64,000 nucleotides of DNA, from NCBI RefSeq assembly GCF_044324875.1, contig NZ_CP172185.1; one strand, 5' to 3'. Position 1 is the stretch's first letter, and each line of letters begins with the position of its first letter. This DNA is from Escherichia coli (lineage in GTDB: Bacteria; Pseudomonadota; Gammaproteobacteria; Enterobacterales; Enterobacteriaceae). The translations under genes were made by a program, and so were the position numbers. The notes beneath the pieces were generated by a model. The model had not been told where the DNA came from, did not search any database, and worked only from the letters and a program-made list of their open reading frames with translations. Below are positions 19,973 to 39,895 of the stretch, in pieces.

Positions 19973-20219
19973 AATCTCGCGCTAACAACCTGGAATCGAG
20001 CCGTCATACTACGGCGCAACGCCCTATAAAGTAAACGATGACCCTTCGGGAACTTCAGGGTAAAATGACTATCAAAATGTGAATTGTAGCTGACCTGGGA
20101 CTTGTACCCGGGTCGGTATTTTTTTGCTTCTGGTCCCGGTGAGGAGTTATGCCGGGCAGGCCGAACAGCCGGGGTGGGTGAAGACTTGCCCCATCAGGAA
20201 TATTCAAGAGGTATAACAA

Positions 20220-26776: not shown

Positions 26777-26863
26777 GCCGAGGTGGTGGAATTGGTAGAC
26801 ACGCTACCTTGAGGTGGTAGTGCCCAATAGGGCTTACGGGTTCAAGTCCCGTCCTCGGTACCA
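26777..26863 (+). tRNA. leuU: tRNA-Leu (anticodon GAG), co-transcribed with secG
   Basis: GCCGAGGTGGTGGAATTGGTAGACACGCTACCTTGAGGTGGTAG...GGTTCAAGTCCCGTCCTCGGTACCA: long variable arm, CTTGAGG anticodon loop, 3' CCA. Confidence 0.93.
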
Positions 26864-30643: not shown

Positions 30644-30720
<77 letters not shown>

Positions 30721-30926
30721 CTTTCCCTTAGAGTCCTTTTTCAAATATACTGTGAAGACTTCGGCCTTCGTAGTGGGATTTGAAAAAATCCTTCTGGAAA
30801 GTGCTCCAGACCGCAGTTGCGGTTATAGGGTTCAGTTATATAAAGCCCCGATTTATCGGGGTTTTTTGTTATCTGACTACAGAATAACTGGGCTTTAGGC
30901 CCTTTTTTTATGTCTTGGGGGTGGGC

Positions 30927-35603: not shown

Positions 35604-35682
35604 TGTAGGCCGGATAAGGCTTTTACGCCGCATCCGGCAGCCGTTGCCTGATGCGACGCTCGCGCGTCTTATCAGGCCTACA
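35604..35682. repeat. REP elements in the infB-rbfA intergenic region
   Basis: tgtaggccggataaggcttttacgccgcatccggcag and gcctgatgcgacgctcgcgcgtcttatcaggcctaca. Confidence 0.8.
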
Positions 35683-37147: not shown

Positions 37148-37513
<366 letters not shown>

Positions 37514-37526
37514 TTCTTGCGAGTTT

Positions 37527-37559
37527 CAGAAAAGGGGGCCTGAGTGGCCCCTTTTTTCA
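37527..37559 (+). terminator. rpsO intrinsic terminator
   Basis: aaaagggggcc-tgagt-ggcccc-ttttttc immediately after the rpsO stop. Confidence 0.8.
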
Positions 37560-37604
37560 AGCTGACGGCAGCAATTCACTGGAAACTAATGTATTGTTGC
37601 TATG

Positions 37605-37708
37605 AATGATCTTCCGTTGCAGAGGTTCGCGCGGCTAATGAGAGGCTTTACCCACATTGGGCTGGGTTAGGGTTGTCATTAGTCGCGAGGATGCGCAGAA
37701 GATCGGGT
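37605..37708 (+). promoter_or_regulatory. pnp leader long imperfect stem-loop (known RNase III autoregulatory processing site)
   Basis: Arms around atgatcttccgttgcagaggttcgcgcg (about 37605-37634) and cgcgaggatgcgcagaagatcgggt (about 37684-37708) are largely complementary; lies between rpsO and the pnp start. Confidence 0.6.
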
Positions 37709-37759
37709 ATTAACACCAGTGCCGTAAGGTACTGTCTAAGAAAGAGAAAGGATATTACA

Positions 37760-39895
37760 TTGCTTAATCCGATCGTTCGTAAATTCCAGTACGGCCAACA
37801 CACCGTGACTCTGGAAACCGGCATGATGGCTCGTCAGGCTACTGCCGCTGTTATGGTTAGCATGGATGACACCGCGGTATTCGTTACCGTTGTTGGCCAG
37901 AAAAAAGCCAAACCAGGTCAGGACTTCTTCCCACTGACCGTTAACTATCAGGAGCGTACCTACGCTGCTGGTCGTATCCCGGGTAGCTTCTTCCGTCGTG
38001 AAGGCCGCCCAAGCGAAGGCGAAACGCTGATCGCGCGTCTGATTGACCGCCCGATTCGCCCGCTGTTCCCGGAAGGTTTCGTCAACGAAGTTCAGGTTAT
38101 CGCCACCGTGGTTTCTGTTAACCCGCAGGTTAACCCGGATATCGTCGCGATGATTGGTGCTTCCGCAGCACTGTCTCTGTCTGGTATTCCGTTCAATGGT
38201 CCGATTGGTGCTGCCCGCGTAGGTTACATCAATGACCAGTACGTACTGAACCCGACTCAGGACGAGCTGAAAGAGAGCAAACTGGATCTGGTTGTTGCGG
38301 GTACTGAAGCCGCTGTACTGATGGTTGAATCTGAAGCTGAACTGCTGAGCGAAGACCAGATGCTGGGCGCAGTAGTGTTCGGTCATGAACAACAGCAGGT
38401 TGTTATTCAGAACATCAATGAACTGGTGAAAGAAGCCGGTAAACCGCGTTGGGACTGGCAGCCGGAGCCGGTAAACGAAGCGCTGAACGCGCGCGTTGCT
38501 GCACTGGCTGAAGCTCGTCTGAGCGATGCTTACCGCATCACCGACAAACAAGAGCGTTATGCGCAGGTTGATGTCATCAAATCTGAAACCATCGCGACGC
38601 TGCTTGCTGAAGATGAAACCCTGGACGAAAACGAACTGGGTGAAATTCTGCACGCTATCGAGAAAAACGTTGTTCGTAGCCGCGTACTGGCAGGCGAACC
38701 GCGTATCGACGGTCGTGAAAAAGATATGATTCGTGGTCTGGATGTGCGTACTGGCGTGCTGCCGCGTACTCACGGTTCTGCGCTGTTCACCCGTGGTGAA
38801 ACGCAGGCACTGGTTACTGCAACGCTGGGTACCGCTCGTGACGCACAGGTTCTTGATGAACTGATGGGCGAACGTACCGACACCTTCCTGTTCCACTACA
38901 ACTTCCCTCCGTACTCCGTAGGCGAAACCGGCATGGTCGGTTCTCCGAAGCGTCGTGAAATTGGTCACGGTCGTCTGGCGAAGCGCGGCGTGCTGGCAGT
39001 CATGCCGGATATGGACAAATTCCCGTATACCGTACGTGTGGTGTCTGAAATCACTGAATCCAACGGTTCTTCTTCTATGGCTTCCGTGTGCGGCGCGTCT
39101 CTGGCGCTGATGGACGCAGGTGTGCCAATCAAAGCTGCCGTTGCGGGTATCGCAATGGGTCTGGTGAAAGAAGGCGACAACTACGTTGTACTGTCTGACA
39201 TTTTGGGCGACGAAGATCACCTGGGCGATATGGACTTCAAAGTTGCGGGTTCCCGCGACGGTATCTCTGCATTGCAGATGGATATCAAAATTGAAGGTAT
39301 CACCAAAGAGATCATGCAGGTTGCACTGAACCAGGCTAAAGGTGCGCGTCTGCATATCCTGGGCGTAATGGAACAGGCGATCAACGCGCCGCGCGGCGAT
39401 ATCTCTGAGTTCGCTCCGCGTATCCATACCATCAAGATCAACCCGGACAAGATCAAAGACGTTATCGGTAAAGGCGGTTCTGTTATCCGTGCTCTGACCG
39501 AAGAAACTGGCACCACCATCGAAATCGAAGATGACGGTACTGTGAAAATCGCAGCGACCGACGGCGAGAAAGCGAAACATGCTATTCGTCGTATCGAAGA
39601 GATCACTGCAGAAATCGAAGTGGGCCGCGTCTACAATGGTAAAGTGACCCGTATCGTTGACTTTGGCGCATTTGTTGCCATCGGTGGCGGTAAAGAAGGT
39701 TTGGTACACATCTCTCAGATCGCTGACAAACGCGTTGAGAAAGTGACCGATTACCTGCAGATGGGTCAGGAAGTACCGGTGAAAGTTCTGGAAGTTGATC
39801 GCCAGGGCCGTATCCGTCTGAGCATTAAAGAAGCGACTGAGCAGTCTCAACCTGCTGCAGCACCGGAAGCTCCGGCTGCTGAACAGGGCGAGTAA
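37760..39895 (+). CDS. pnp: Polynucleotide phosphorylase (PNPase)
   Basis: ORF 37673..39895; start set at TTG 37760 (…ttg ctt aat ccg = M-L-N-P) for the 711-aa product; RNase PH, KH and S1 domains. Confidence 0.93.

Follow-up and report, generated by a model that had tools for sequence, protein, structure and literature searches.

The rpsO–pnp intergenic region of Escherichia coli: a bidirectional terminator, the RNase III leader hairpin, antisense SraG and the UUG start of pnp

The closest described system is the rpsO–pnp region of E. coli K-12, where cleavage of both arms of a leader stem by RNase III, and the PNPase autoregulation that depends on it, have been published for a sequence nearly identical to the one considered here (PMC5029454). 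Counted from the start of the P2 transcript, RNase III cleaves this stem at 39 and 77 nt (PMC5029454). PNPase then removes the 5' fragment, RNase E attacks the message and PNPase synthesis is lowered; the processed leader is also bound by CsrA, with one site overlapping the Shine–Dalgarno sequence (PMC5029454). At the upstream end of the region RNase E cleaves ahead of the terminator T1, which is bidirectional (PMC5029454). On the opposite strand the small RNA SraG has a primary transcript of 216 nt, the expression of which has been demonstrated (Fontaine et al., 2016; PMC5029454).

We have analysed the corresponding region in a window of 64,000 nucleotides, the whole stretch of E. coli DNA available to us (contig NZ_CP172185.1). 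The segment 37100–37900 is found unchanged (100% identity) in many complete E. coli chromosomes; a search of E. coli genomes matched it in 5,425 of 5,426, and the identity was 99% or more in 5,412 records. There are 5,428 matching places in all, one of them on a record typed as a plasmid, and this match and the single genome that lacks one are probably assembly oddities. RefSeq annotation mapped from an identical strain gives the gene order infB–rbfA–truB–rpsO–pnp–nlpI. An earlier note, made from the sequence alone, had assigned the region to the rpsO–pnp spacer, and the genome match together with the annotation confirms this context, with the truB–rpsO–pnp–nlpI order of E. coli. Between 37500 and 37800 just two bases differ from K-12 MG1655, at 37658 and 37660, both of them in the apical loop of the leader hairpin described below. 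We consider that this is the rpsO–pnp intergenic control region of E. coli, working as published, with a probability of about 0.96. The coding sequences that bound it, and the leader that precedes the first of them, are as follows.

37244..37513, plus strand: rpsO coding sequence, ribosomal protein S15, 89 amino acids (ORF list; RefSeq), stop codon TAA at 37511–37513
37760..39895, plus strand: pnp coding sequence, 711 amino acids, TTG (UUG) start at 37760–37762 (RefSeq; comparison of 80 species; toeprint and mutant; structures)
37186–37300: S15 leader (Rfam RF00114), 118 bits

Other Rfam matches above the gathering score in the window are a greA leader, a rimP leader, naRNA4 (within the rbfA–truB region) and two tRNAs; their coordinates are 20003–20124, 30809–30909, 35608–35678, 26777–26860 and 30644–30717.

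For comparison we used the homologous locus from 80 other Enterobacterales species, ranging from E. albertii to Yersinia, Serratia, Xenorhabdus and Pectobacterium. The gene rpsO adjoins pnp in every one of them, with spacers of 201–398 nt. Two features lie at the rpsO end of the spacer.

37521..37529, plus strand: conserved single-stranded block GAGUUUCAG just 5' of the terminator (conservation)
37529..37557, both strands: bidirectional Rho-independent terminator, T1 for rpsO on the plus strand and the SraG terminator on the minus strand (folds, scan, conservation)

The rpsO terminator hairpin claimed in the earlier note is present at 37529–37557. It reads GAAAAGGGGGCC-UGAGU-GGCCCCUUUUUU and forms 12 pairs, with a predicted energy of -19.9 kcal/mol and z = -3.0 (one of 200 shuffles folds as well). 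The stem comprises six G–C pairs with an A–U/G–U extension and is followed by six U on the plus strand and by CUUUUCU on the minus strand, which are the attributes of an intrinsic terminator. The hairpin stands between an A-run and a U-run and therefore folds on the reverse strand as well, at -15.7 kcal/mol. A consensus terminator scan calls the 37529–37557 hairpin on the minus strand, and there GGGGCCACUCAGGCCCC with its U-rich tail serves SraG. A fuzzy motif search allowing up to two mismatches recovered the motif GGGGCC...GGCCCCTTT in 78 of the 80 species. In the two exceptions the same search found a weaker GGAGCC...GGCTCC variant (L030) or no such motif (L056).

Just upstream of the stem, GTTT at 37523–37526 is invariant in 46 species, and the 37521–37529 block is likely to be where RNase E cuts to remove the 3' hairpin of rpsO. 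We take it to be the 'M2' site, which would place the cut exactly within these nine bases.

The upstream half of the spacer varies in length in some genera. About 65 extra bases separate the rpsO stop codon from the terminator in Erwinia, Pantoea, Tatumella and Rosenbergiella (for example L023, L051 and L061), in which the terminator begins at spacer position 81–88 rather than about 20. Insertions of about 105–135 bases separate the rpsO terminator from the pnp promoter region in Yersinia pekkanenii (L080, approximately 854–1060) and in an Enterobacter species (L026, approximately 889–1064). The Yersinia insertion contains GAGCTTACATAAGTAAGTGA, presumably the core of an ERIC repeat, and the same locus carries a second, weak Rfam match to SraG at 829–919.

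Downstream of T1, on the pnp strand and ahead of the pnp TTG at 37760, two further RNA structures are predicted.

37608..37704, plus strand: pnp leader hairpin 'R', RNase III substrate, 97 nt, imperfect (fold, covariation, conservation, published function)
37717..37734, plus strand: second small hairpin CAGUGCC-GUAA-GGUACUG, 3' of the RNase III hairpin and ahead of the ribosome-binding site (folds; covariation)

The leader hairpin folds at -47.6 kcal/mol with z = -5.0, an energy that no shuffle out of 200 reached. A core of 12 bp pairs 37630–37641 with 37676–37687, and the apical loop occupies 37655–37662. A long imperfect stem-loop in the pnp leader, identified with the known RNase III autoregulatory site, had been proposed from the sequence, with the suggestion that 37600–37710 be folded and compared with the published leader. 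The fold places the hairpin inside that interval, and the comparison identifies it with the published RNase III target (PMC5029454).

All 80 species have both arms of the hairpin, TTCGCGCGGCTAATGAGAG and TGTCATTAGTCGCGAGGATG, most of them in exact form. When the 46 spacers of similar length were aligned, the RNAalifold consensus recovered the terminator, the long hairpin and the second small hairpin at 37717–37734. Across these 46 species 96.5% of the pair cells hold standard pairs, against 43–49% when the partners are slid by 1–3 columns, and the covariation score is 0.227, against 0.03–0.09 in the slid controls. Changes on both sides of a pair were seen at 18 pairs over all of the helices tested, namely the hairpin, the terminator and the second hairpin. 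Variation is confined to the basal and apical parts of the long hairpin and to the small hairpin, where all five consensus pairs show compensatory changes across species. The 12 bp core never varies, so covariation is uninformative about the core itself.

We also observed that the core and its flanks, although non-coding, are almost invariant in sequence, beyond what concerns pairing, over the 80 Enterobacterales species. Overlapping constraints, from RNase III recognition, the antisense SraG and a GGA motif, are the probable cause. In Dickeya oryzae (L060, 1010–1126) and Xenorhabdus budapestensis (L079, 1009–1132) some 50–60 extra apical bases lengthen the stem; the extended hairpin has a predicted energy of -63 kcal/mol and keeps the core arms.

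The promoter of the pnp-only message and the RNase III cuts can be placed on this structure approximately.

37592..37605, plus strand: candidate pnp promoter P2, with -10 box TATTGT at 37592–37597 and transcription start at about 37602–37605 (conservation; published RNA length)
37640..37682, plus strand: approximate span between the cuts RIII1 (about 37640–37644) and RIII2 (about 37678–37682), the upper stem-loop being excised (inferred)

A consensus promoter scan called a site upstream of rpsO only and detected neither P2 nor the SraG promoter. The P2 promoter and the SraG -10 box were placed by conservation and by arithmetic from PMC5029454, which fixes the P2 start to about 3 nt. Within the candidate -10 box, T37592 and A37593 are invariant in the 46-species alignment and the adjacent bases nearly so. 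The pnp RNA transcribed in vitro was 234 or 237 nt in length, with its 3' end at nucleotide 79 of the ORF (PMC5029454), from which we infer a leader of 155–158 nt and a P2 start at 37602–37605. A start at 37602 would put the cuts after 37640 and 37678 and leave a 3' overhang of 2 nt, whereas a start at 37605 does not give the 2 nt stagger of RNase III. Because the two published RNA lengths are mutually inconsistent, the cuts are given here as approximate positions; they would fall inside the invariant core or on its border.

We were led to consider three other readings of parts of this region. The first concerns the fate of the processed leader. Immediately downstream of the RNase III hairpin stands GAUCGGGU (37701–37708), with its complement AUCCGAUC in pnp codons 3–5 (37767–37774). 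Once RNase III and PNPase had freed the 3' arm, GAUCGG (37701–37706) might pair with CCGAUC in pnp codons 4–5 (37769–37774) and so help to block initiation. If true, PNPase autoregulation would include a cis-acting RNA switch as well, one that occludes the initiation region of processed transcripts. The helix does appear in the minimum-energy folds of both the full intergenic RNA and the processed leader, and among 76 distinct sequences 80% of its cells are paired, compared with 18–56% when the partners are slid. However, compensatory changes are absent from those 76 sequences, as the protein dictates the coding side, and in Erwinia, Serratia and Tatumella the two segments no longer pair. Moreover, the upstream GAUC has an explanation already, since it closes the RNase III hairpin at its base, and the segment 37705–37775 folds no better than its shuffles (z = -1.3). 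We therefore regard a switch of this kind, which would be a further and undescribed layer above the published mechanism, as unlikely.

The second alternative requires a description of the opposite strand.

37530..37745, minus strand: sraG, antisense small RNA of 216 nt, 5' end at 37745 and 3' end at the common terminator (Rfam; MG1655 feature; PMC5029454)
37752..37757, minus strand: candidate SraG -10 box TAATAT, between the pnp Shine–Dalgarno sequence and TTG (read from the sequence)

The earlier note stated that SraG has been reported in this intergenic region. This holds, with a match to Rfam RF00082 at 37701..37530 that covers the whole model (1–177 of 177; 162.2 bits against a gathering score of 50, E = 1.5e-29), and it can be sharpened: the RNA lies on the minus strand. 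The MG1655 sraG feature (b4449, 3311183–3311398) maps to 37745..37530, and SraG is thus antisense to the whole pnp leader and ends at the rpsO terminator. The Rfam model represents an older form of 174 nt (37701..37530), while the revised transcript begins 44 nt further upstream at 37745; the extension is given as 42 nt in PMC5029454 and is 44 nt by the Rfam and MG1655 coordinates. The model matched in all 20 of the diverse Enterobacterales loci tested. The hexamer TAATAT stops 6 nt short of the annotated 5' end (37745) and fits a -10 box for that start; the published mutation of the SraG -10 element is close to the pnp Shine–Dalgarno sequence and does not overlap it (PMC5029454). A minus-strand ORF of 58 amino acids at 37648–37824 is antisense to pnp and without support, and was given no weight.

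It might be argued that the hairpin is kept mainly as a structure of SraG, the pnp leader being simply its mirror image. Rfam models its family on the minus strand, where the match is strong, the minus strand folds well in its own right (-34.9 kcal/mol, z = -5.0) and RNase III cuts SraG at the mirror sites (PMC5029454). Against this, the pnp strand gives the more stable hairpin, by 12.7 kcal/mol (-47.6 compared with -34.9 kcal/mol), because conserved G·U pairs, which form on the pnp strand only (alignment columns 158–216 and 151–223), become C·A on the SraG strand. In addition, the likely SraG -10 box (ATATTA as read on the plus strand) is replaced in several of the aligned genera, for example by GACAGAATT in Enterobacter, and the hairpin is invariant there. 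Removal of SraG alters PNPase only 1.3-fold (PMC5029454). Conservation of the hairpin chiefly for the sake of SraG is thus very improbable, and the G·U asymmetry between the strands argues for the pnp leader as the main object of selection.

The third alternative concerns the point at which PNPase translation begins, for which one more feature is required.

37748..37752, plus strand: Shine–Dalgarno sequence AAGGA; AAGG(A/G/T) is conserved, and GGA is also a candidate CsrA site

In the window AAGGA lies 8–12 nt 5' of the TTG at 37760, and AAGG(A/G/T) is present 11–13 nt 5' of TTG in 81 of 81 sequences. The initiation codon proposed from the sequence, TTG 37760, is the start annotated in the MG1655 RefSeq record and in a PGAP-annotated strain, and the aligned codon is TTG in all 80 species. 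A toeprint of 30S and tRNAfMet was obtained 15 nt from the UUG, and a TTG-to-TGA mutation abolishes pnp translation (Fontaine et al., 2016; PMC5029454). In the solved structures 3GCM, 3H1C and 7OGK the chain opens with MLNPIV.

The mechanically called ORF opens instead at 37673 and encodes 740 amino acids, 29 more than the annotated 711. The earlier note was right to describe this ORF and to regard its 29 additional residues as unsupported, and was mistaken in having it begin with ATG: the codon at 37673 is TTG, and no in-frame ATG occurs before 37691, which lies 23 codons ahead of the true start. E. coli and E. albertii have an open frame from 37673 onwards. An in-frame stop lies at most 29 codons upstream of the TTG in 66 of the 80 species, and in 48 of the 80 there is no ATG, GTG or TTG between that stop and the pnp start. 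The counterpart of ATG 37691 belongs to the hairpin arm GAGGAUG and is conserved as sequence for that reason; only five of the 80 species have it open and in frame. The indels between the hairpin and the ribosome-binding site are not multiples of three.

Translation of PNPase from TTG 37673 or ATG 37691, to give a protein of 740 or 734 residues with an N-terminal extension, can draw on the open frame and on the entries 3CDI and 3CDJ, which carry part of the extension (KRKDITL...) and indicate that an older, longer annotation was once trusted; but both codons are buried in the 3' arm of the -47.6 kcal/mol hairpin, neither has a properly spaced Shine–Dalgarno sequence, and TTG 37673 lies upstream of the putative RNase III cut and so would be absent from the processed mRNA, and we therefore reject an upstream start, on the species comparison, the toeprint and TGA mutant, and the structures that begin at MLNPIV, as scarcely credible. 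Translation from 37673, the finding against which the earlier note had staked its choice of start, is contradicted by the same published toeprint and mutant, which settle the matter.

The residues encoded upstream of the UUG (37742–37759) that are included in the E. coli PNPase crystal structures 3CDI_A and 3CDJ_A are a legacy of that older annotation, and are absent from the later structures 3GCM, 3H1C and 7OGK. The region is of use mainly as a quality check: the pnp ORF called mechanically runs 29 codons too far, into a regulatory hairpin, and comparison alone suffices to recover the correct UUG; such over-extension is not harmless, as the non-native residues in 3CDI and 3CDJ attest.

Our account of the working of the region, which follows the published one, combines sequence features, folds, conservation, covariation and the start-codon comparison from this analysis with cleavages, autoregulation and effects of CsrA and SraG that are taken from the literature. 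Transcripts from the rpsO promoter stop at T1 (37529–37557) or read through into pnp, and the second promoter, P2 (probably at about 37592–37605), supplies a pnp-only mRNA. Both mRNAs bear the 97 nt leader hairpin at 37608–37704. The invariant core of that hairpin is cut by RNase III on both arms, and PNPase then strips the small 5' fragment still paired to the leader. The stripped message is exposed to translational repression, by CsrA at GGA motifs and by PNPase itself, and to decay by RNase E, so PNPase limits its own synthesis. Translation begins at UUG 37760, served by AAGGA, and the ORF that opens at 37673 is an accident of reading through the 3' arm of the hairpin. SraG is transcribed from a promoter that probably lies between the pnp Shine–Dalgarno sequence and the start codon and ends at the common terminator, and its pairing with the leader lowers pnp translation and mRNA stability.

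The region is a compact textbook case of control in several layers: about 250 bases accommodate a bidirectional terminator, the hairpin cut by RNase III, a weak UUG start, and an antisense RNA with its promoter between a Shine–Dalgarno sequence and a start codon. Every element (T1, P2, hairpin R, the UUG start and SraG) matches one that has been described, and the region is therefore already known. It is ordinary, and there is no departure from the published picture.

In comparison with the K-12 rpsO–pnp region, the gene order, the annotated pnp start, the hairpin and the terminator are the same. MG1655 differs only in the apical-loop bases 37658 and 37660 (TTGGG here, TAGAG in MG1655), which are unpaired in the predicted fold. 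SraG (RF00082; b4449 in MG1655) matches the full-length model at the same position relative to pnp and rpsO, with no substantive difference. The S15 leader (RF00114) belongs to the same operon but is a separate element, which controls rpsO translation and lies outside 37521–37760. RNase III autoregulatory leaders of the rnc–era type likewise have a long imperfect stem in the 5' leader, double cleavage of which destabilizes the downstream message (PMC8708148). Unlike rnc–era, in pnp the regulated enzyme, PNPase, is not the one that cuts; PNPase degrades the small paired 5' fragment after RNase III has acted.
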